Positions 1 to 11,139 of a DNA stretch of 11,139 bases are shown one piece after another. A program made the position numbers and the translations under genes. Under the pieces are notes generated by a model that saw nothing but the letters and a program-made list of their open reading frames with translations, was not told the DNA's origin and ran no database searches. The stretch comes from Chlamydiales bacterium (GTDB lineage: Bacteria > Chlamydiota > Chlamydiia > Chlamydiales > JBDQID01): assembly GCA_047611865.1 (NCBI GenBank), contig JBLFWS010000111.1, positions 1-11,139 on the forward strand. The letters run 5' to 3'. The first letter of the stretch is position 1; every line of letters starts with the position of its first letter.

Positions 1-84
1 TTCTGTTTTAGCTAACCAGCATTGAAAATCAATATCTTGCATAGCATCCCCCAGATCAAAGTTTTCTTCAGTACTTCTTCTAAG

Positions 85-399
85 TTATCGGCTATATGCC
101 TGCATACTTAACTTGGACAGAGCCAAACAATTTCCTATGATCTCTTTTGTTACTTCATCTCCCTTTTCACGAAGAAACTCCTTTTTTTCTCTCGCTCTAG
201 ATGCGCCACCCATTGAAGAACTTCCGCTAATTCCTATTAAAACTGGAGCGGATTCACTTTCCTCAAGTGTAGGAATTACATCTCGACTAGCAACCTCGAC
301 CTGCTTGACAGATCCCTCTCTTACTAAAGATAAAGGCTCAAGTTTTATTGCGTTTGATTTTCCTAAGCTTGGAATTGAGTCTGAGGATGAGCTAAGCAT
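85..399 (-). CDS. hypothetical protein with Ser-rich N-terminus; possibly a pseudogene interrupted by TAA at 85-87
   Basis: ORF track 85..405. ATG at 399-397 is preceded by AAAAGGTG (GTG at 405-403 is an alternative start). The same frame stays open from 84 to the window edge (LRRSTEENFDLGDAMQDIDFQCWLAKTE). No recognisable family. Confidence 0.45.
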   Translation of the reverse strand: MLSSSSDSIPSLGKSNAIKLEPLSLVREGSVKQVEVASRDVIPTLEESESAPVLIGISGSSSMGGASRAREKKEFLREKGDEVTKEIIGNCLALSKLSMQAYSR

Positions 400-672
400 A
401 AACACCTTTTCTATATTAAAACAAACAGCACCTACTACTAGTTATTTTAATACAAAACTTGAATTACATCAATGTCGTGACTTAATTACATACTAACAAA
501 GGTTACTTACTGCGCAAATACCTACATTTTAATACGTTTGCAGAATTCATTGTTCGAACACAATGTGGTTTATTTACTTTTATAAAAGAGAGTATAAGGA
601 TATTAAAAAGGTCAACAAAAAGGTAATAGGGAAATTTCTAAATTAGAATGTGCAGATATTAGACATACCCAC

Positions 673-704
673 AAAAAAATGGGGCCGATAATTCGCCCCC
701 ATTT
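673..704 (-). terminator. Rho-independent terminator of the 718..1062 gene
   Basis: Stem AAATGGGG (677-684) / CCCCATTT (697-704), inner CGA/TCG pairs and a TAAT loop. The A7 run at 673-679 reads as a U-tract on the minus strand, 13 nt past the stop codon. Confidence 0.85.
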
Positions 705-717
705 CAAACAACTTCGT

Positions 718-1062
718 TTATTTTTTCATATCCGAAGCTTCTTTAAACTCCAGAATCATCATACCGTATCCTGCCGCGCCATAAGAATTCAAGGTAGAAG
801 CAAAGGATAGCATTACCCTGGGCTCTTTCTCGCAAGCTGTGTAGATAAGATCTGCAACCCTGCTATCCACAAACCTTTCTTGAATATACGGGCTCTTTCC
901 CAAACTTGACAGTACAGCTTCTTTTACTTGAGCTATTTTCTCATCAGTAACTGTGACTTTTTGATCTGCATTATATTTATCTTTGATATTCAAAATCAAA
1001 GGAATTTCATTCTGTAATAATTCATATCCGGAATTAACATAACTATCTAAACTAGCGGTCAT
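718..1062 (-). CDS. hypothetical protein (114 aa)
   Basis: ORF with an AGGT RBS-like motif, an upstream sigma70-like promoter and a downstream terminator. No recognisable motif. Confidence 0.8.
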   Translation of the reverse strand: MTASLDSYVNSGYELLQNEIPLILNIKDKYNADQKVTVTDEKIAQVKEAVLSSLGKSPYIQERFVDSRVADLIYTACEKEPRVMLSFASTLNSYGAAGYGMMILEFKEASDMKK

Positions 1063-1097
1063 AATGAATACCTATATGTTATAAAAGAGACGGGTAG

Positions 1098-1126
1098 AAC
1101 ATACAACAAACCTATATATCTGACAA
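1098..1126 (-). promoter_or_regulatory. sigma70-type promoter of the 718..1062 gene
   Basis: Minus strand TTGTCA-N17-TATGTT, with TG immediately 5' of the -10 box; about 35 nt upstream of the ATG. Confidence 0.55.
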
Positions 1127-1142
1127 TAAACTCACATGCCAT

Positions 1143-1320
1143 AGCGTTGTTGCATGGTCGACGCCGATACGGTGGGATCACAGAGAAAATGTGAAATATC
1201 TGAGGGAGCGGGGCATACGATCAGGCGTTGAATGCCAAAGTTTGAGAAAGTAGTAGCTCAGTTTCTCCCTGACTCATCCCTCCTCTGTGTTCTCAGTGGT
1301 GATTTTTGCGCAACAAGACC
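1143..1320. mobile_element. MITE-like non-autonomous element with IS903/IS5-like ends
   Basis: Direct repeat ACATGCCAT at 1134-1142 and 1321-1329. Imperfect terminal inverted repeats AGCGTTGTTGCA / GGTCTTGTTGCG (reverse complement of 1309-1320) share the core TTGTTGC. No transposase inside. Confidence 0.6.
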
Positions 1321-1425
1321 ACATGCCATCACAAATTTCAGAATAAACAGCTGTAAATTCATAAAAAAGAATTATTCTTCACTCTTAGTCATAACGACGT
1401 CTTACTCTATAGTATTAAATTCTCA

Positions 1426-1555
1426 TCAAAAGAGTATCGAAGTCTCACATGTGAGAAGGTCAATGGCGGCTTCCAATGAATATCTAGAAGGACTATGTGT
1501 TGCCACAAGGAGATCCGCGTCAGGAAAAGCCTCAGCGTCTCTGGGGTCCGCAAGA
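1426..1555 (-). pseudogene. nagZ: orphan duplicate of the nagZ 3' end
   Basis: Translates as LADPRDAEAFPDADLLVATHSPSRYSLEAAIDLLT-CETSILF*, identical to the NagZ C-terminus up to LLT. There is an in-frame TAA immediately upstream (1558-1560) and no start codon. Confidence 0.85.
1450..1555 (+). repeat. 106-bp direct repeat, copy 1 (partner 2949-3054)
   Basis: Manual alignment at offset 1499: 100/106 identical, no gaps, mismatches at 1453, 1459, 1510, 1516, 1519 and 1537. Confidence 0.97.
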
Positions 1556-1908
1556 TATTAACTCATCAATAAAAATTTATGTTGTACTAGTCGTAATCAG
1601 AATATGCCCCTAACTTGGGCTAATGGGTCTATCTAGTAGTACGTTTTTTTTGTTTCATCTGAAGTTATTTCAGATTTTTCCGGTCAATTCGCGGGAATCC
1701 TTCAGAAATTCAAAACAGAACTTTTGCTTGCGGAAGCGGTCTTCTACAATCCGCCAAGACAAACTGGGACAAAAACTCTATGTCTTCTTTTTCCTGTCAG
1801 GCCCCCGCGACTTCCCTCTAATTCAGGAGCAGGAAGGAGTACTCCACCTCCTCTATACCCAACTCTCGATTTAGAAAGAAAAAAAAATGCGCATTAACTT
1901 TGCAAGTA

Positions 1909-2799
1909 TCATACCCCAGGTTCGCCTTCATGAGACAAAAGTTTTTCTATCGCACCGACGTTACCTTTAAATTCTGCCGCCTGTAAAGGTGTCATACCAA
2001 ATTGGGTTACCTTATTTATGTCAGCTCTGTGAAATAAAAGACTTTCTGTAACGGCTGTGCCATCAACTTCAAATAGTGCTGCTGCGTGAAGTGGAGTCAT
2101 TCCTAAATTGTTTGTCTGATCTACAAAAGCACCTTGCCTTAAGAGACTTTCTGCAATAAATCCATGCCTGTTAAACGCTGCTATGTGAAGCGGAGTATCC
2201 CCACGAGGATCAGCCCTGTTTACATCAGCCCTGTGATGTAAAAGCTTTGTCACCATAGATTCATGATTATTCTGGGTTGCTATGTAGAGCGGTGTCATTC
2301 CATCTCGATGTTCTCGATTTACAGAAGCTCCCTGGTCTAAGAGCCTGTCTGCAATAGCGCTATGTCCATTTTGTGCTGAGATATAGAGGGCCGTCACATC
2401 TTTAGAATTTTGTCTATTTACATCTACTCCTTCTGCCAGAAGACTTTTTACTTTGGCCTCATCCCCACTTTTTGCCGCAATGAAAAGAAGTGGATTAAAA
2501 TTAACACGACAAAGGGGGCAAGTGTCCTTTTTTTCAGTCCAACGCACGATCATTGCTTTTCTAAACATGTGCCTGCAAGGTTGCTTAACTAAAATATCTG
2601 GTGATTCAGTAAGATTAAGTGCCTGAATCATTAAACTTTCTTTTGACTTCTTTTCAACAACTTTACTTACGAGATCCAGATGTTCACTAAAAGGCCTTTC
2701 TCTGTAAGAGTGAGATAAATGTATATTAAATCTTTCTAGAGAAATTGGACACAGATCGTCAGAATTGTAAAAATTCGGATAACGGGGTTCTATTGTCAT
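1909..2799 (-). CDS. degenerate RING/U-box-like domain plus six ankyrin repeats; putative E3 ligase effector
   Basis: N-terminal CPISLE...PCRHMF...IVRW...TCPLCR. About six 33-aa repeats with TPLH/TALY/TPLY...LL..GA.VN consensus. AAGGT RBS-like motif upstream. Confidence 0.92.
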   Translation of the reverse strand: MTIEPRYPNFYNSDDLCPISLERFNIHLSHSYRERPFSEHLDLVSKVVEKKSKESLMIQALNLTESPDILVKQPCRHMFRKAMIVRWTEKKDTCPLCRVNFNPLLFIAAKSGDEAKVKSLLAEGVDVNRQNSKDVTALYISAQNGHSAIADRLLDQGASVNREHRDGMTPLYIATQNNHESMVTKLLHHRADVNRADPRGDTPLHIAAFNRHGFIAESLLRQGAFVDQTNNLGMTPLHAAALFEVDGTAVTESLLFHRADINKVTQFGMTPLQAAEFKGNVGAIEKLLSHEGEPGV

Positions 2800-2936
2800 A
2801 ATAAAATACCTTCATTCATTGAAATAATACTTTAATTTATTATACTAATGCTTTTTTTTAAAAAATAATGATCTCGTGAAAGATACATTAGTCCAGCATA
2901 TACTACTATAGTATCCAGTTAAATTAATGCATATTT

Positions 2937-4445
2937 TCAGATACTAAGTGTAAGAAGATCAATGGCGGCTTCCAATGAATATCTAGAAGGACTATGTGTT
3001 GCCACAAGAAGATCAGCATCAGGAAAAGCCTCAGCATCTCTGGGGTCCGCAAGAAGCAATACGATCGATTCTCTATTTTTCCCTATCTTCTGAAACAAGA
3101 CTGCCTGCACAGGCTGAAGAATAACTTGGTATGCGCAGAAAATAATTCTGTCTGCAGTAAGATTCAAATCCTCAGAAAAGTCGTCAACAAAATGAAAGCT
3201 TATCGAATCCCCCAGGGATGACCAATCAACTTTTTCGACATTTTCTTTCAAGCTTTTAGGAGCCACCACCAAGGTCTTGACAGCTTTATCTGTGAGTTTG
3301 CCCTTTTTCAAAAATATCGTAGATTTTTTTGCTACCTCTTTAGCCAGCTTTTGATGACTCGCCCATTCAGAGATCGAAATTCCCTCACTTCTGTCCATTA
3401 CTTTGTAACGCTGCTTCAATAATAGAATTCTTTCTACCGATTTGTTAAGCCTATCTTCTGAAATACGACCATTCCTTACCGCCTCAAGAACAGCATGGTA
3501 AATTCCTATAATTTCGTGTACGTGCTCTCTTTTGCCGTCTATAAAATCTCTTCCGCCAAAAAGCAGAATATCCACTCCTGCGTTAAAAGCTTGAATGGCT
3601 CCTTCAGCAATGCCCGAACAGCTATTCACAAATCCTCCCATAAAAAGCGAATCTGAGATAACGACTCCACGATACTGAAGATTTTGGCGAAGGAGGGTGG
3701 TAAGAATCTTTTCTGAGAGTGTCGCACAATTGTAAGGATCTATTTTTGGGAAAAGTATATGACCCGTCATGATGGCTGGAGCTTTTCCTGAAAGATTCTT
3801 AAAAGGTAAAAGCTCTGCAGCTTGCAATTCTTCCATCGTCTTATTGACTACAGGTAAAGAAGCATGTGAATCTACATCTGCGTCGCCATGCCCTGGAAAA
3901 TGCTTTGCTGTTGCTATAACTCGTGATTTCAAAAACCCCTCCAAAGCAAGAGCCCCCAACTTGCTCACCTCTTCAGGAACCTGTCCAAAAGAGCGTATAC
4001 CGATAACAGGGTTTTCGTAACGGGTGTTCACATCCACCACTGGAGAAAAATTCATATTGATTCCGGAAGAACGCAATTCTCTGCCCATGGCTTCTGCACA
4101 AGTTCTCGTAAGAGCGGGCTCTTTCGTTGCCGCTAAAGAAAAATTTCCGGGGAACTCGGTGAATCCCTTTTTCAACCTCGTCACACGCCCCCCCTCCTGG
4201 TCGATACCGATGAAGAGTGGTAAGACTCCTTGATCATTAGCTAATGCTTGCAAGCCGCTGCTTAGATTTGTAACTTGTTCATTGCTACTTAAGGCATTAG
4301 ACCATTCATAATAAATGACCCCTCCGATTCTCACCTCTTCAATTAACCTCCTTGCATCGCCATTTGCTTCTTCTCCGTGAAAAAAAGTCATAAACAGCTG
4401 CCCCACTTTTTCTTCCAAAGAGAGCTCTCTTTCCCCAATAAGCAT
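2937..4445 (-). CDS. nagZ: beta-N-acetylhexosaminidase, glycoside hydrolase family 3
   Basis: LEEKVGQLF, IDQEGGRV, NPVIGIRSFG, NagZ signature KHFPGHGDADVDSH and nucleophile motif VISDSLFM. Short C-terminal domain, no signal peptide, RBS AGGTG. Confidence 0.96.
   Translation of the reverse strand: MLIGERELSLEEKVGQLFMTFFHGEEANGDARRLIEEVRIGGVIYYEWSNALSSNEQVTNLSSGLQALANDQGVLPLFIGIDQEGGRVTRLKKGFTEFPGNFSLAATKEPALTRTCAEAMGRELRSSGINMNFSPVVDVNTRYENPVIGIRSFGQVPEEVSKLGALALEGFLKSRVIATAKHFPGHGDADVDSHASLPVVNKTMEELQAAELLPFKNLSGKAPAIMTGHILFPKIDPYNCATLSEKILTTLLRQNLQYRGVVISDSLFMGGFVNSCSGIAEGAIQAFNAGVDILLFGGRDFIDGKREHVHEIIGIYHAVLEAVRNGRISEDRLNKSVERILLLKQRYKVMDRSEGISISEWASHQKLAKEVAKKSTIFLKKGKLTDKAVKTLVVAPKSLKENVEKVDWSSLGDSISFHFVDDFSEDLNLTADRIIFCAYQVILQPVQAVLFQKIGKNRESIVLLLADPRDAEAFPDADLLVATHSPSRYSLEAAIDLLTLSI
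2949..3054 (+). repeat. 106-bp direct repeat, copy 2 (inside the nagZ 3' end)
   Basis: Matches 1450-1555 at 100/106. Confidence 0.97.
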
Positions 4446-4473
4446 TGAAAATCACCTGTTCTTCTGTTACAAA
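4445..4473 (+). promoter_or_regulatory. candidate sigma70-type promoter for the symporter operon
   Basis: TTGAAA (4445-4450)-N17-TACAAA (4468-4473) in the 62-bp divergent gap, overlapping the nagZ start codon and RBS. Confidence 0.35.
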
Positions 4474-4507
4474 ATATCACATCAATTTATTAAGCCCGGA
4501 TTCCTCC

Positions 4508-6028
4508 ATGACCCCATCTACGACATTCACTACTTTGGATTGGTGTGTAGTCGCTGCGTACTTCCTTATAGTCCTTATCATTGGAGCCTACTTTTCCCGA
4601 GGTCAAAAAAACGACAGGGGCTTTTTTCTCGCTAACCGATCCATGCCCATGTGGGCCGTTTCCCTTTCCATTGTTGCTACATCCCTATCGGCCGTGACCT
4701 TTATCGGCGCCCCTCAAGAAGCCTTTCGTGGAGACCTATCCTACCTCATCCTCAATCTCGGCGGGCTGATTGCCGTTGTCATTATCGCCCAATTTTTTAT
4801 TCCCGCCTTTTACCAATCCAATAGCCTCACTATATACGGTTACCTCGAAAAACGCTTCAACTCCAAAGTACGCATTGCTGCTGGGATATGCTTTTTAGGA
4901 GGCCGCCTTCTTGCATCCGGCGCCCGCCTCTTCGCAGCCTCCCTTGCTGTCTCCCTACTTTTTTATGGCAATGCTCAAGGGAGCACCAGCCAGCTTATTA
5001 CTTGCATTGTTATTTTAGGAGCTACCGGTACAATCTATACCTTTTGCGGAGGTATCAAAGCTGTGATATGGACGGATGTTCTCCAAATCTTTGTCGTTAT
5101 TGGATCAGCCCTTCTCAGCATTGCAGTTCTGTACCAAAGCATCCCCCTTTCTTTTGAGGGGATGATCTCCTACTTATCCAATAGTCCAACCCATATTGAT
5201 GGGGGGAACAAGTTATCTGTACTACATACAAGCTTTGACTGGGCTACACCTTATAACATCTGGACAGGCCTTTTCGCCATTGTCTTTCTCAATATTGCCA
5301 GCTACGGCGTCGACCAGGATCTTGTTCAGCGTATGCTCACTTGCAAAAATGCCTGGCAAGGAGGCCTCTCTCTCATTATTTCCAACGTCATTGGGATTGC
5401 TGTAGTCATACTCTTTATGATCATCGGCTTGATGCTTTTTCTATTCAATGACCCTGAAATAATGGGAAGCAATGTCGCAAACTTTCAAGATGGAGCCCTC
5501 ATTTACCCGCAATTTTTAATTCAACATCTCCCTTCCGGTGTATCTGGATTGGCGATGGCGGGACTTCTCGCTGCGGCAATGAGCTCACTCGATTCCGCTA
5601 TCAACGCAATGGCTAGCAGTGTCATTGCCGATGTATGGCGCCCACTAAAAAAAACTAATACAGAAGAGTTCGAAGAAGGTACAAGCACAGCACGATGGAC
5701 TGTCGCCGGTACGGGTCTTGCATTAACTCTTTTTGCTATCTTCGCCGCACTAAGCTATGACCCTAAATCCGACACACTACTGGGCTTTGCTCTTGGTGTT
5801 ATGTCCTATGCATACGCCGGACTCCTTGGAGTATTCTTCACAGGCCTTTTCACCACAAGAGGTAGTACTTTGAGCGTCTACAGCGCTCTTTTTGCCGGAG
5901 CCTTCACCGTCCTTCTTTTACAACCGTATATGCTTCCAGCATTATGCGGTTTCTCTCTAGCGTGGCCTTGGTGGATGGTATTCGGAACAACTGTAAGCTT
6001 TATAACTTGTATAACAGGAAAGAAATAG
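4508..6028 (+). CDS. sodium:solute symporter (SSS/SLC5 family), probably an amino-sugar or muropeptide-sugar importer
   Basis: Many hydrophobic helices and motifs FFLANRSMPMWAVSLSIVATSLSAVTFIG, GGIKAVIWTDVLQ, DQDLVQRML and AAMSSLDSAINA. ATG at 4508 is preferred to TTG at 4445, which overlaps the nagZ start. Substrate inferred from context. Confidence 0.95.
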   Translation: MTPSTTFTTLDWCVVAAYFLIVLIIGAYFSRGQKNDRGFFLANRSMPMWAVSLSIVATSLSAVTFIGAPQEAFRGDLSYLILNLGGLIAVVIIAQFFIPAFYQSNSLTIYGYLEKRFNSKVRIAAGICFLGGRLLASGARLFAASLAVSLLFYGNAQGSTSQLITCIVILGATGTIYTFCGGIKAVIWTDVLQIFVVIGSALLSIAVLYQSIPLSFEGMISYLSNSPTHIDGGNKLSVLHTSFDWATPYNIWTGLFAIVFLNIASYGVDQDLVQRMLTCKNAWQGGLSLIISNVIGIAVVILFMIIGLMLFLFNDPEIMGSNVANFQDGALIYPQFLIQHLPSGVSGLAMAGLLAAAMSSLDSAINAMASSVIADVWRPLKKTNTEEFEEGTSTARWTVAGTGLALTLFAIFAALSYDPKSDTLLGFALGVMSYAYAGLLGVFFTGLFTTRGSTLSVYSALFAGAFTVLLLQPYMLPALCGFSLAWPWWMVFGTTVSFITCITGKK

Positions 6029-6029
6029 T

Positions 6030-8069
6030 ATGCATAAAACCGTTAGTACATCTTCTAAATGGACTGAGATAGAAGAAAACTTCAAAGAAAAAAGCAATTT
6101 CAACCCATCTACCCCAAAAGATCTTCTACCTCTCATAGAACTTAAAAACGGCGAAGAAATAGGTAAACTCTCATCCTTAAGCTTTATCCTTTGGCTAGCT
6201 AAAAACCCCAAAGGAGTCGCTGTACTTCCCATAGGCAAAAACTCCCTATCGTTTCTCTCCAGCCTGACACACTATGTCGTCCATTGGACTTCTCCAGATG
6301 TTCAAGAAGAATTAAATAGCCTTGGGATCTTTATGGAAATGTTTCCTGATACAAATAACGTCAAGTTGGTCCAGCCCTTTATTTTCAATCCTCCCCTTCA
6401 TCAATATCAAACCAGTCTTTACAAAAAACTCCTCCATATTGCGGACAAACATATTCTTTCTTTAAACCTCGAAGGGGTCAAACCCAGCAAGGTAGAAAAT
6501 GAATTTAGCACTCTCTGCCAACATACCCTTCGGCAATGGGGTGGCATTGGTTTCTACCTTTCAGAAATAGGTCAAGATGCTAATATTGGCTTCAATGCTC
6601 CTGGGTCTAAATTTAAGGATATCACACAACAATATCAGCCACCATATTCCACCCTCGCACAGATAGCTTCTGACTTTGGTGGCATTGACCATGTCAAAGG
6701 GAAGACTTTACTAACAATAGCCCTCGGTGGATTCCGTTCCGATGCTACGATCATCATTACAGGTACAGGCGAAGACAAAGCCCTATCTATTAAAGACGCC
6801 ATCGAAAAAACCGACAACTCTCACTTACCTATTAGCGCCGTTCGAAAATTAGCAAATATACGCTTTTACGTCACTGAGGGAGCGGCCTCCAAACTTTCTT
6901 CCAAACGCGGTGAAATAATCCGCACAGAAACCCCCCTTAGTCATAGGACAATCGACGATACGCTCATTGATCTTGCCCTTGAAAAGAAAAAACGACTTTC
7001 AGACCTTTCTTCCAATGACCTCGAAAGTGATGAGATGGGCAGATCTCTCCTATCCCGCCTATCCGACAATCTCGAATCTACGATTTCACAATGCAGACAA
7101 AGACTCATCGACAAAATGGGATTAGGACTTTCTCTACCCAAGAAGAAAACAATTCTGCATACAGCGCCCCACCATGACGACATTATGCTCTCCTATTATA
7201 GTAGTATCGACCCTCTGCTTTCTGAGAACAAAAACCATTTCACATACCTCACCAGTGGTAGTAACTCCGTTACTGACAAATTTGTAAAATCTCGTCTGAC
7301 TCCCAAAAACAGAAAAACCTCTCCCTTGTCTTACTCTGAACTTATCAATAGATTCTCCAAAGCCTACGAGGGCAATAGCCAAGAAGAGATGAATCTTCTT
7401 GAAAAAAAAATAATCCAGCAAAAAAAGATGGAGTTGGACTCTGAGGAAGACCTTAAGCCTCTAAAATCTTTTATCAGAGAGTCTGAAGTAGATCGCCTTT
7501 GGAGTTTGAAACAGGTCCCCCAAGAATGTATCACCCATTTTCGAGGTAAGTTTTACTCGGACATCAAGTTTATTAACGAAGATGCTCGCGAATTTAAGAA
7601 ACACATTGACGCCATCAACCCTGATATTATCACGCTTGCTCTAGACCCTGAGGGCACAGGCCCCACAACGCATCATCTCGTGCAGCGTATTATCACTGAT
7701 AGCCTTCGACGCTTTCTTGGAAATCCTCCCATAGAAATCTGGGGCTACCGCAATGTATGGTTCCAATTTTCCTGTTCCGAATGCAACCTTATCATTCCCG
7801 TCTCTAAAGACGCCCTCCAGGAACAGAACCGTGCTTTCCTCTCTTGCTTTCCCAGTCAGTCGAAGGCTGCCTTCCCCTCCCCTCGCCACGACGGCCCTTT
7901 TTCAGAGCTCTCGGAAAAGATTCTTAGGGAGCAGTATGAGCAGATTGTAAGTCTTCTCGGAGAAGATTTCCTCACCGATCACCCCGACGAACGCATCCGC
8001 TCCGCCCGTGGATTTGTTTTCATTCAGACCCTCTCGGTCAAGGAAATCATCCAAAAGGTCACCCACTAA
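6030..8069 (+). CDS. fusion of a degenerate glucosamine-6-phosphate deaminase (NagB)-like domain and a PIG-L/LmbE-family deacetylase
   Basis: N-domain LPIGKNS, GGIGFYLSEIGQDANIGFNAPGS, TGEDKA and FYVTEGAASKL follow the NagB motif order. C-domain has HTAPHHDD, IRESE, PDIITLALDPEGTGPTTH and WGYRNVW. Starts 1 nt after the symporter stop. Confidence 0.88.
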   Translation: MHKTVSTSSKWTEIEENFKEKSNFNPSTPKDLLPLIELKNGEEIGKLSSLSFILWLAKNPKGVAVLPIGKNSLSFLSSLTHYVVHWTSPDVQEELNSLGIFMEMFPDTNNVKLVQPFIFNPPLHQYQTSLYKKLLHIADKHILSLNLEGVKPSKVENEFSTLCQHTLRQWGGIGFYLSEIGQDANIGFNAPGSKFKDITQQYQPPYSTLAQIASDFGGIDHVKGKTLLTIALGGFRSDATIIITGTGEDKALSIKDAIEKTDNSHLPISAVRKLANIRFYVTEGAASKLSSKRGEIIRTETPLSHRTIDDTLIDLALEKKKRLSDLSSNDLESDEMGRSLLSRLSDNLESTISQCRQRLIDKMGLGLSLPKKKTILHTAPHHDDIMLSYYSSIDPLLSENKNHFTYLTSGSNSVTDKFVKSRLTPKNRKTSPLSYSELINRFSKAYEGNSQEEMNLLEKKIIQQKKMELDSEEDLKPLKSFIRESEVDRLWSLKQVPQECITHFRGKFYSDIKFINEDAREFKKHIDAINPDIITLALDPEGTGPTTHHLVQRIITDSLRRFLGNPPIEIWGYRNVWFQFSCSECNLIIPVSKDALQEQNRAFLSCFPSQSKAAFPSPRHDGPFSELSEKILREQYEQIVSLLGEDFLTDHPDERIRSARGFVFIQTLSVKEIIQKVTH

Positions 8070-8082
8070 CTTAAGGCTTTCT

Positions 8083-10809
8083 ATGACAGAGCAAATCCCA
8101 CTCCTTTCCCGCCTGCATCACTTCCCGTATATCTTTTGTATTGACGGAGGTGGATCCAAAACCGTCATGCAAGTCATCAATGGAGAAGGGAAACTACTTC
8201 CTTTGAAGCAGAATGGACAAGTCGTAGAAGCTGTTCGCTCTGGTGCCGCTAATATCTCTACCCTCTCTAAAGATATAGTCAGTAAAAGTCTGAAAGATCT
8301 TTTCCATCACGTCACTGTTGATGGAACGGAGATTTCCACTATATTTTCCAACTGCGCCGTAATCGGTGGCTTTGCTGGTGGGGAGCACCCTGAAAAAAGA
8401 GAAAGCCTTCTCTCTATCTTCGAAGATATAGGTATTCCGAGAGAAAATGCCTTCATCCGTAACGATGCTGAGCTGGCTTTGGAACTCGTGGGCAATGCTG
8501 GAGCTATCCTCGTCAGTGGAACAGGTTCTATTTGTTATGGGAGAAATGGAAACGAAACGAAACGTGTGGGAGGCCTCGGGAGATATCTAGGTGACGAAGG
8601 CAGTGGCCATTTCCTCGGTATGCAAGCCGTTAAAGCTGCGCTAGAAGAAGAATTTGTCTGGGGAGAACATACAACATTAACCCTTGCGCTACAGCAGCAC
8701 TTTCAAATGGAATCTCTAGGACCTTTGGCCTCTACCATCAATAGTGGTAAAATGGCAGCCTTTGACGTAGCCGTTCTTGCAGCTCATGTTTTTCACCATG
8801 CTCAACGCGGGGATCTCGTGGCAAGGAGGATCGCCTCTGAAGGAGCTCACCATCTGAGTAAGCTCCTAGCATCACTGCTCACCCAACTGAAGATATCACA
8901 ATGCAACGTCTACCTCGTCGGTGGAATTTTTAAAATTCCCTATTCTGAACAATTCATTGAAACCATTCGCCAGTCACCGGAGGTTTCGAGCCTGGATGAC
9001 CCCCTCTTGATCAATGTCAGCGACACATATATCGCCACACAAAGTACTATGGAAATCCTACGCCGCAATCAGAACCCTCGTTTCTGTGGACTCAGTTCCC
9101 TTCCGCATTCTCCCTCTACCCTCTCTGAGGATTCCCTAAAAAAAGTCCACTGCGGCCAACTCTCGACAGAACAATCCCACTCCCAGACTTCACAACTACA
9201 CAAAGTCTTTCAAAAGTCCAGCATAGAAGGCTTTGCTCTCCTCCACGATATTGACAAACAAGTGACAGCAAAACTCGCCTCCTTTCTGGAAGAACATTTT
9301 GTGGGCCTGTCTAAAAAAGTTCAGAAAACGATCCGCAAAGGCGGACGCATCTTCCTCGTTGGAGCGGGATCCAGCGGCAGAGTCGCCGTCTCCCTCGCTC
9401 GTAAATGGAGAGAGCACTGGAAAAATGATAAGTACTCCAATGCTGTGATACCTATTATCTCAGGTGGTGGCCGCGCCTTTGTACGCCCCAGAGAAGGTGA
9501 TGAAGACTCCATTGAAAAAGGGAAAGAAGCTCTTGCAAACTTTAAGCCGTGCTCGGATGACTTGAGTATTCTAATCTCGGCAAGTGGTTCTGCAAAATTT
9601 CACTTGGGAGTAGCATTGGTCGCCCATGCACATGGATGCGAAACGTGGATCTTTCAAAATACTCCCGAGTTACCTGAACACACCCAAGCTATAGTCCAGG
9701 AATATCAGGTACTCCCTCTAGTTCTCGACTTAGGCCCTCAGGCTATCACTGGTTCCACCAGACTACAAGCTGCCAACAGTGCACAGCTCTTTCTAGGCCT
9801 TCTTCTCGACGCCACCATTAGCGATTATGAAGACCCCCTTAAACGGGCATTAGATGTCCTCCGAAACTACGAAAAATCTATTGATTCTCTTCCTCAGCAT
9901 TTCGACGATTTAAAAAGAATTCTGGATACCACCGTAGAAATCTTTTCTTCCAAATCAGCCAACTTCTTTAGACAATCTGATGAAACAGAAGAGGGTTACG
10001 TCACCTACATCAGTGGTGATGACACCCTTACAGAAATCCTCATTGACACTGCTGAGACCGCTCCAACATTTTCCCTCAATCCTCCAAGAACTATCGAAGA
10101 AAAGGAAAAAAAGAAAGCCGAGTACAGAACGTATCTTTTAGGAGAAAGCAGCAACAAGGAAACATGGGCAAATCTTATCGGACCTTACCTGCCTATAAAT
10201 ACACAAAAAGACTCTAACGACCTCTTACTTTCCCAAAATGCAATCGGATTTGGCTCATACCTTGATCGTCCTAAAGGAACAGGTAATTTTGCAATTGGAG
10301 TCTTTACAGGAAAACCTAAGAAAGTTCTGGAAACAGAAATCGAAGCCATTAAAACTATTAGAGGCCGCACTGCCATTATCTCCATAAATAAAACCCAAAA
10401 CCTGGATATCATCCATGATATCATCCATCTAGACATCCAAGACATCTACGAGGACCCTTTAAAACTCATCCCTTCCCTTGTCCTCAAGCAAACCCTCAAC
10501 TACCTTTCTAACGGAGCTATGATACTAATGGGTAAAGTCCACGGAAACATCATGGTTGACCTCTCTCCGTCAAATGACAAACTTATCGATCGTGCTGTAC
10601 GCATTGTTAAAGAAATTTACTCAGAAAATCACCCTGGCGAAGCTCTTTTGGATGATGAACTGGTTTTCCAGGCAATATCGAGAGCCTTCCATTATAAGAA
10701 AGAGCACGAGAAATATCATAACACCTCTTATCCATCTCCAGTAAAAACAGTTTTAGCTATGTTAGAAAACCGTTGCGGGGTACAAGAAGCTTTTCGAAAG
10801 TGTGTTTAA
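8083..10809 (+). CDS. fusion of a BadF/BadG/BcrA/BcrD-type GlcNAc/MurNAc kinase and a tandem-SIS MurQ/GKRP-like domain (908 aa)
   Basis: Kinase motifs IDGGGSKT, NDA, SGTGS, GGLGRYLGDEGSG and VGGIF. SIS motifs STEQSH, GAGSSGR, EGDED, ISASG, GPQAITGSTRLQA, DTAETAPTF and GKVHGNIMVDLSPSNDKL. ATG at 8083 with AAGG upstream is preferred to GTG at 8008. Confidence 0.9.
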   Translation: MTEQIPLLSRLHHFPYIFCIDGGGSKTVMQVINGEGKLLPLKQNGQVVEAVRSGAANISTLSKDIVSKSLKDLFHHVTVDGTEISTIFSNCAVIGGFAGGEHPEKRESLLSIFEDIGIPRENAFIRNDAELALELVGNAGAILVSGTGSICYGRNGNETKRVGGLGRYLGDEGSGHFLGMQAVKAALEEEFVWGEHTTLTLALQQHFQMESLGPLASTINSGKMAAFDVAVLAAHVFHHAQRGDLVARRIASEGAHHLSKLLASLLTQLKISQCNVYLVGGIFKIPYSEQFIETIRQSPEVSSLDDPLLINVSDTYIATQSTMEILRRNQNPRFCGLSSLPHSPSTLSEDSLKKVHCGQLSTEQSHSQTSQLHKVFQKSSIEGFALLHDIDKQVTAKLASFLEEHFVGLSKKVQKTIRKGGRIFLVGAGSSGRVAVSLARKWREHWKNDKYSNAVIPIISGGGRAFVRPREGDEDSIEKGKEALANFKPCSDDLSILISASGSAKFHLGVALVAHAHGCETWIFQNTPELPEHTQAIVQEYQVLPLVLDLGPQAITGSTRLQAANSAQLFLGLLLDATISDYEDPLKRALDVLRNYEKSIDSLPQHFDDLKRILDTTVEIFSSKSANFFRQSDETEEGYVTYISGDDTLTEILIDTAETAPTFSLNPPRTIEEKEKKKAEYRTYLLGESSNKETWANLIGPYLPINTQKDSNDLLLSQNAIGFGSYLDRPKGTGNFAIGVFTGKPKKVLETEIEAIKTIRGRTAIISINKTQNLDIIHDIIHLDIQDIYEDPLKLIPSLVLKQTLNYLSNGAMILMGKVHGNIMVDLSPSNDKLIDRAVRIVKEIYSENHPGEALLDDELVFQAISRAFHYKKEHEKYHNTSYPSPVKTVLAMLENRCGVQEAFRKCV

Positions 10810-10824
10810 ATAGCGTTGTTGCAT
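10810..10824 (+). repeat. 15-bp direct repeat ATAGCGTTGTTGCAT (partner 1141-1155); IS903-like end
   Basis: Exact match to 1141-1155; begins directly after the stop codon of the kinase-SIS gene. Confidence 0.8.
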
Positions 10825-10855
10825 AATTTAATACGTTTACAATCATTTATTTAAC

Positions 10856-10882
10856 CACCGAGAGCACCGAGAACACAGAGAG
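10856..10882 (+). repeat. three tandem 9-mers CACCGAGAG/CACCGAGAA/CACAGAGAG
   Basis: Read directly from the sequence. An inverted related copy (16/18) lies at 1283-1300. Confidence 0.7.
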
Positions 10883-11072
10883 ATAGAAAAATGGGCATGG
10901 TTCAATTCAAGGTAACACTTTTTCCTAAGCCTATAGGCTGTCTGAGCAAAATCTCGGATGACTTAAGAGAAGCGAAGGAATTTGTGATTATGTAACTGAG
11001 TCATGCCCGACCTTCTAAAAATGCAGGGTATCAAAATTGATAAACGTTTTGTTCTTTGCTTATATTGGAGAG

Positions 11073-11103
11073 GTGCCACTACCGTGGCACAGAATCTTTT
11101 TTT
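11073..11103 (+). terminator. hairpin with displaced T-tract; possible terminator
   Basis: Perfect 7-bp stem GTGCCAC-TACC-GTGGCAC. The T7 run starts 6 nt downstream, which is non-canonical spacing. Confidence 0.4.
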
Positions 11104-11108
11104 CCTAT

Positions 11109-11128
11109 CCCCGAGCTAAAGTACGGGG
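11109..11128. repeat. REP-like palindrome
   Basis: CCCCG-AGCTAAAGTA-CGGGG; single copy in the window. Confidence 0.35.
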
Positions 11129-11139
11129 CTATCAAGAGG

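Follow-up and report, generated by a model that had tools for sequence, protein, structure and literature searches.

Two diverged versions of one chromosomal segment in tandem at a chlamydial nagZ locus, the probable scar of a lopsided exchange between related lineages

Architecture of the locus

We analysed a stretch of 11,139 nucleotides (the window), which is the entire contig C111 (JBLFWS010000111.1) of a Chlamydiales assembly of 3.59 Mb in 272 contigs (GCA_047611865.1) that is detected in ice metagenomes. Its central feature is a nagZ-like glycosidase gene whose 3' end is present twice, the second copy lying downstream of a gene for a protein with a RING/U-box-like domain and ankyrin repeats (RING-ANK). 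A preliminary description, made from the letters alone, had read this layout as an effector cassette bracketed by a duplicated gene end. The 3' part of a further gene, here called gene X, is also present twice. The features of the locus are as follows (aa, amino acids; ORF, open reading frame).

2937..4445, minus strand: nagZ-like GH3 glycosidase gene, 502 aa, intact, ending LLT-LSI* (stop codon 2937-2939; Pfam PF00933, 1.6e-75)
2949..3054, minus strand: proximal, in-gene copy (a) of nagZ codons 465-499
1909..2799, minus strand: RING/U-box-like and ankyrin-repeat gene, 296 aa (Pfam ankyrin, E 1e-36 to 1e-18)
1587..1894, minus strand: decayed relic (b') of the 3' part of gene X, 308 bp, 79% identical to C146:7549-7861 over 314 aligned columns (genome-wide BLAST)
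1556..1586, no strand: AT-rich spacer of 31 bp that matches neither nagZ nor X and would hold the illegitimate junction
1450..1555, minus strand: distal orphan copy (a') of nagZ codons 465-499, without indels or amino-acid changes, with an in-frame stop two codons upstream
1426..1449, minus strand: alternative tail CETSILF and stop (LLT-CETSILF*, stop codon 1426-1428)
718..1062, minus strand: ORF114, an orphan with no Pfam match, absent from the 400 genomes of the order that were searched
125..405, minus strand: 5' end of gene X (b), which starts at 405; its ORF of about 458 aa extends across the contig end as far as C146:7500 and faces ribH

In the direction of transcription the order is nagZ (a), RING-ANK, the X relic (b'), the 31-bp spacer, the nagZ tail (a'), ORF114, X (b) and ribH. 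The nagZ 3' end flanks the insert as a direct repeat, with nagZ itself kept intact, and gene X lies 1.2 kb beyond the distal copy, in the same orientation as its relic. The repeats are interleaved, the nagZ tails being separated by 1,499 bp and the X tails by about 2,509 bp. Judged from its sequence, the locus is two diverged versions of one chromosomal segment in tandem. The preliminary description had placed RING-ANK in about 1.4 kb between the nagZ ends; the gene is indeed there, but the account was incomplete in that the interval also holds the 308-bp X relic and the 31-bp spacer.

Divergence and selection in the two pairs

The nagZ ends (2949-3054 and 1450-1555) are identical at 100 of 106 positions over 35 codons, with a longest perfect run of 50 bp. 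All six differences are third-position and silent (GAT/GAC at codons 470, 476 and 496, GCT/GCG at codon 477, CTT/CTC at codons 479 and 498), and the two copies leave the repeat for the different tails LSI* and CETSILF*. The preliminary description of the repeat is thus confirmed in full. For the actual codons, the exact chance that six of six changes are synonymous under neutral change is 2.5e-4 to 1e-3. Over 26.3 synonymous and 78.7 nonsynonymous sites, the proportion of synonymous differences is 0.23 (0.27 after correction) and that of nonsynonymous differences is 0.

The X relic carries six frameshifting indels and one in-frame stop, and its mismatches to X number 13, 18 and 28 at codon positions 1, 2 and 3. 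Third-position differences are 6 of 35 for a/a' and 28 of 101 for b'/b (Fisher p=0.26), whereas first- and second-position differences are 0 of 70 against 31 of 206 (p=1e-4), and indels 0 in 106 bp against 6 in 314. On these counts a/a' and b'/b are compatible with a single split time, and the X relic is one that, by the same comparison, was dead long before a' was cut off. Because a' is undecayed while b', 31 bases away, is badly decayed, the codon comparison indicates that a' necessarily served as a functional nagZ end over most of the split time and was severed recently; zero changes in 79 nonsynonymous sites limit its later drift to about 4% at most (rule of three). It follows that selection acted on both nagZ ends and that their joining is recent. 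These results support two earlier proposals: that both copies evolved as working nagZ ends, and that one nagZ end displaced the other.

No homologue of gene X of similar length was found among 5.8 billion proteins except its own record. The gene occurs in 0 of 400 genomes of the order and in no viral contig, and an Atlas search gave no usable match. Since gene X and ORF114 are both orphans, the relic could only have come from the same locus, in this lineage or a near one. The cassette, which contains that relic, would therefore stem from this locus, either as present in a related lineage or as an old copy, and not from a roaming element, which argues against the mobile effector mini-island proposed earlier.

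Soundness of the assembly

Contig ends overlap neighbouring contigs by 127 bases, more than the 106-bp repeat, from which we infer that the assembly used k=127. The end of C146 is identical to window 125-251 over such an overlap. Depth was taken from Logan unitigs (short words) in runs X1, X2 and X3, which may be the assembly's own source. One X3 unitig of 2,347 nt spans from C146 into the window as far as 1489, confirming that C146 lies to the left. For left flank, cassette and right flank the unitig depths are 60.3, 53.6 and 63.8 in X1, 5.9, 8.8 and 8.5 in X2, and 11.4, 11.8 and 11.3 in X3; the 50-mer common to both nagZ-end copies has depths of 126.8, 14.2 and 20.6, respectively. In X2 and X3 the unitigs flanking both copies are present at roughly the depth of single-copy sequence and the shared 50-mer has about twice that depth, and the unitig across 1480-1679 is absent from the X1 listing. 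Unitigs break at the 50-bp perfect run, so that the copies are unphased and a crossover inside the run is not visible. The cassette has no consistent depth deficit over the three runs, X1 being compatible with a minor empty allele of up to about 15%, of which no sign was seen, and runs X4 and X5 (small share) yielded no long piece of the locus.

An assembly artefact is unlikely, because the contig overlaps exceed the repeat and the depths are near-equal. In its specific form this rival holds that the contig is a chimera of two co-occurring strains, or that a free 1,499-bp circle was threaded into it, and it can point to short-read data, to unitigs that do not phase the copies and to runs that may be the assembly's source. 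It is countered by overlaps longer than the repeat, by near-equal flank, cassette and flank depths across three runs of very different coverage, and by the fact that no alternative unitig leads away from either nagZ-end copy. We hold it to be highly improbable.

Origin of the locus

Our favoured explanation, which we regard as probable, is that the locus is the scar of a single lopsided DNA exchange between two related chlamydial lineages, homologous on one side and joined illegitimately on the other. Lineage 1 would have carried nagZ ending in LSI*, RING-ANK and an already dead X stump, RING-ANK having replaced ORF114 and the 5' part of X, and lineage 2 would have carried nagZ ending in CETSILF*, ORF114 and an intact X. 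DNA of one lineage would have entered the other, with homologous recombination at one end and illegitimate joining at 1556-1586 at the other. The second homology arm (106 bp at 94%, or about 300 bp of X at 79%) would have been too short or divergent for a clean double crossover, so that both versions were kept; the 106-bp repeat would then be a leftover and not a target-site duplication. Because the repeats are interleaved, the distal block (nagZ tail, ORF114, X) is an equal candidate for the incoming DNA. Lineage-1 DNA may have entered anchored in nagZ, bringing RING-ANK, or lineage-2 DNA may have entered anchored in the rib operon, restoring ORF114 and X; with the rib-operon anchor the incoming DNA would be the stretch from nagZ tail to X, outside the cassette of the preliminary description. 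As to direction, the G+C content at third codon positions (GC3) is 0.23 in the proximal nagZ-end copy and 0.40 in the distal one, with a genome mean of 0.37, and codon likelihood prefers the proximal copy by 4.2 nats; the X pair is free of such bias. The same structure would result from one RecA crossover with a circularised donor piece, and we count that case within this explanation.

A single non-homologous junction (1556-1586, where the X relic gives way to a') suffices for both repeats, and two alleles that each evolved under selection are now adjacent, as expected of a one-sided recombination scar. The genome carries a ComEC-family gene. Chlamydia exchange DNA on co-infection, one interspecies cross having given a strain with three rrn operons and not two (PMC8936141), and integration by an anchor plus illegitimate joining is proposed for displaced gene ends (PMC5361080). 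Several points weigh against a lopsided exchange. Neither of the two parental alleles was found, full-length nagZ matches reaching 43-45% identity at best; the junction has no visible microhomology, and the 31-bp spacer is unexplained. Homology-facilitated illegitimate recombination (HFIR) is described as 100- to 1000-fold rarer than homologous transformation (PMC6382021). All six a/a' differences are T in the proximal and C or G in the distal copy (two-sided p ~0.03), a bias that is not expected from two lineages alike in base composition and that is absent from the X pair (27 weak-to-strong against 22 strong-to-weak changes). Finally, the same data are fitted by a whole-gene paralogue followed by a recent deletion.

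The last scheme supposes an old in-genome tandem duplication of nagZ-ORF114-X with both nagZ genes functional, replacement of the first ORF114-X by RING-ANK, and a recent deletion of codons 1-464 of the second nagZ. It likewise yields silent-only differences, an undecayed tail beside a decayed X relic and one junction, requires no donor, and invokes a process described as common in chlamydial gene families (PMC4209131). A working second nagZ would, however, need part of the divergent transporter, of which no trace was seen, and two full-length nagZ genes occur in 0 of the 30 relatives with a match. Tandem duplicates are unstable, and the redundant copies would have to last, uncollapsed, until synonymous divergence reached about 0.27, with none of about 79 nonsynonymous sites changed. 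We accord this scheme a minor chance. The simplest event would be an in-place partial duplication from the nagZ tail to the X tail, the dead nagZ piece being silent by chance or by gene conversion, and it would have had several trials, as the genome has other low-copy fragments near their parents (14 on the same contig among 1,977 ORFs). It makes a' and b' equal in age, and in its simple form is rejected by their pairs' similar third-position divergence and unequal decay: the chance of 0 of 70 at positions 1 and 2 is 0.004 to 1e-5, that of no indel is 0.13, and that of six of six synonymous changes, with one functional and one neutral copy, is 0.004-0.009. Gene conversion would remove silent differences as well, and we consider such a duplication very unlikely.

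An eroded or trans-mobilised site-specific element of the e14/icd type could also have inserted at nagZ codon 465, bringing a new 3' end for the gene, the X relic stemming from an aberrant excision in the donor. An intact gene, cargo and a displaced 3' fragment with silent differences form the icd-e14-icdC geometry (PMC13626634). The genome has five tyrosine-recombinase matches and one serine-recombinase match (C65, C54, C11, C12, C209, C94), so action in trans is possible; a comparable integrase-less islet with RING/U-box-like cargo lies at a tRNA-Leu gene on C130, and the GC3 of RING-ANK is unusually low. Against this, no recombinase or remnant of one was found among the window ORFs scanned, recombinases lying on other contigs only, in agreement with the earlier statement that the window has no integrase. 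A search for an attachment-site core gave dyads of 5/6 and 6/7 only, run with no shuffle control, and no strong dyad is common to both repeat starts. The cassette DNA had no match among 72,556 plasmids and 50,697 phages, the nagZ neighbours differ in 11 of 11 relative loci read (1.5-kb flanks), no relative showed a second 3'-end match, and the cassette has no consistent depth deficit. The X relic, moreover, needs an extra step. RecA could in principle excise the interval through the 50-bp perfect run; no such excision was seen. Altogether we think an element of this kind unlikely. A dif-like site considered in the spacer was discarded for its wrong spacing; genome-wide, the pattern has one match, on C12, and none in the window.

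Relatives and recurrence in the genome

This genome is the sole member of its genus, with one other genome in the family, and the closest named matches of its symporter gene are Chlamydiales/Chlamydiae metagenome-assembled genomes at 58-67% identity, on which ground we take it to be an environmental chlamydia. No empty allele was found among 40 relatives, of which 30 had a nagZ match, all distant and with no second 3'-end match listed. At the 11 of 29 relative nagZ loci that were read, the neighbours differ and the nagZ C-termini vary in length. Metagenome contigs gave three nagZ loci at 42-46% identity and no close relative, and the neighbouring transporter gave five loci in the genome collection, with no close relative or empty allele. 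A narrow literature search returned no report of such a scar in environmental chlamydiae.

We scanned 1,977 ORFs of at least 200 aa for low-copy partial DNA matches; 35 were retained after filtering, of which 14 share a contig with the parent gene. nagZ was the only gene among the 1,977 with a downstream 3'-end copy bearing several, all-silent differences. A protein-level search for gene-end copies gave 12 matches in nine genes. An integron-like or stacked cassette layout was not seen: the locus has one unit only, and the layout does not recur in the genome. On C47 an 81-bp internal fragment (1485-1565 against 4370-4450), 2.5 kb upstream of a DEAD-box C-terminal-domain (helicase-domain) gene, has five differences, all third-position (four silent, one replacement), with a 533-aa orphan-looking ORF between. 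The C130 islet (7113-8065, about 0.9 kb) consists of an intact tRNA-Leu(TAG), an opposite-strand ORF of 169 aa that is RING/U-box-like and a degenerate 57-bp copy of the tRNA 3' part, with no integrase. Decayed fragments near intact parents, some with genes between, also lie at C35:11976-12116, C22:24429-24511, C112:5376-5464 and C14:10006-10052; from motifs we take the parents to be ssb-like, mscS-like, AAA-ATPase-like and ABC-ATPase-like, respectively.

The RING-ANK gene

The cargo gene has a GC3 of 0.265, at the 1st percentile of the genome. Its product contains the latter half of a RING (C75, H77, W88, C94, C97), with R80 and M83 at two later zinc positions. It is not a canonical RING (C3HC4 or C3H2C3), as two ligands are missing from the segment PCRHMFRKAM and the spacing of the first Cys pair is not canonical; the zf-RING_2 score is 27.2 bits against a cut-off of 27.3. 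The best match in the PDB is RNF165 (E 1.5e-5), and the match to RING-H2 ligases is limited to the second half of the segment. The product is a putative ubiquitin-ligase effector. The best 150 matches to the full-length protein, besides itself, were ankyrin-repeat proteins only, and a search with residues 1-130 returned only the protein itself. Within the genome the N-terminal 105 aa match only themselves, that is, the gene is single-copy, and four ORFs fit a RING-like pattern. The protein is listed on three database contigs, the longest of which, at 19,776 bp, is close in length to C146 and C111 joined (19,610 bp).

Flanking features

nagZ starts about 60 bp from the ATG of a divergent transporter. 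Transcribed divergently from nagZ are a sodium:solute symporter gene, an ORF of 679 aa and a fusion of sugar kinase and SIS domains; together with nagZ they form a probable amino-sugar recycling cluster. The 679-aa ORF (6030-8069) has no Pfam match and shows deaminase-like and deacetylase-like motifs by eye, and 8083-10809 encodes a BadF-type kinase fused to a GKRP/SIS domain.

The left contig end holds one further feature.

1..124, no strand: end of a multicopy element, at 7-10 times the single-copy unitig depth, by which gene X is interrupted in a fraction of the population

The element is inserted in gene X at 125, with a depth of 446 against 60 in X1. The unitig across the junction of element and X has a depth of 18.5 in X1 and 3 in X2, and the X3 unitig passes uninterrupted. 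The same element end opens contig C7; it may resemble an IS1595-type transposase start. Short repeats are present at 10805-10893 (75 near-full copies in the assembly) and 10890-11139 (28 copies), and 1141-1300 is a worn repeat mosaic with 14 matches in the assembly. A full copy of the 31-bp spacer was not found elsewhere in the genome. The likeness of two downstream intergenic regions (TACTATAG) was rejected as not above chance (shuffle p=0.32). Scanning 400-3200 gave 10 promoter-like sites against 8.7 expected and no terminators, and an Rfam scan of 1-4600 gave no match.

Significance and comparison with known systems

If a lopsided exchange is the true origin, one genome records exchange between two uncultured chlamydial lineages at a silent divergence of about 0.25. 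The two lineages must then meet, probably in one host cell given the intracellular life of the group, and the exchange would be a route for adding orphan, effector-like genes without an integrase. A silent duplicated gene end with cargo is not by itself proof of a mobile island, and such cargo is worth checking for relics of the neighbours past the far repeat. A wider generalisation is conceivable, which we regard as doubtful: that environmental chlamydiae acquire host-manipulating genes through lopsided exchange, anchored in the ends of housekeeping genes, with sister species that differ by about 6% at conserved genes. The 106-bp repeat would then let RING-ANK act as a switch that needs no integrase and can be removed, its loss changing the NagZ C-terminus from LSI to CETSILF, and the C47 fragment, taken as silent-only, would mark the same donor pool a second time.

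The nearest parallels come from four systems. The putative effector resembles the NEX1b RING/U-box-LRR family of Parachlamydiaceae (PMC4209131) in joining an N-terminal RING/U-box-like domain to a repeat domain, but that family has leucine-rich repeats, whereas here the repeats are ankyrin, the gene is single-copy and the zinc ligands are incomplete. Interspecies Chlamydia recombinants with an extra rrn operon (Suchland 2009, as cited in PMC8936141) share an exchange on co-infection that leaves donor and recipient versions adjacent; they arose in a laboratory cross under drug selection over long rRNA homology, whereas here a natural scar of about 1.5-2.5 kb is found in an uncultured lineage from ice metagenomes. 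The icd/e14/icdC arrangement of E. coli (PMC13626634) likewise has an intact gene, an insert and a displaced C-terminal fragment, and recombination between the copies would swap in mostly silent changes, with the gene still working. In contrast to the roughly 15 kb and SOS-induced site-specific excision described for e14, the present insert has 1.4 kb, no recombinase, a relic of a neighbouring gene and no excision seen. HFIR and C-terminal displacement in the type VI secretion effector-immunity arrays of Vibrio and the orphan 3' ends of Rhs genes (PMC5361080; PMC6382021) share one homologous anchor, one non-homologous join, retention of the old downstream DNA and the lack of an integrase. Unlike in those systems, what was displaced here is a housekeeping enzyme's tail, there is one event and not an array, relics of both flanking genes are kept, and a donor and microhomology were not seen. 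The outcome and the candidate mechanisms have thus already been described in other bacteria, and the surprise is modest.

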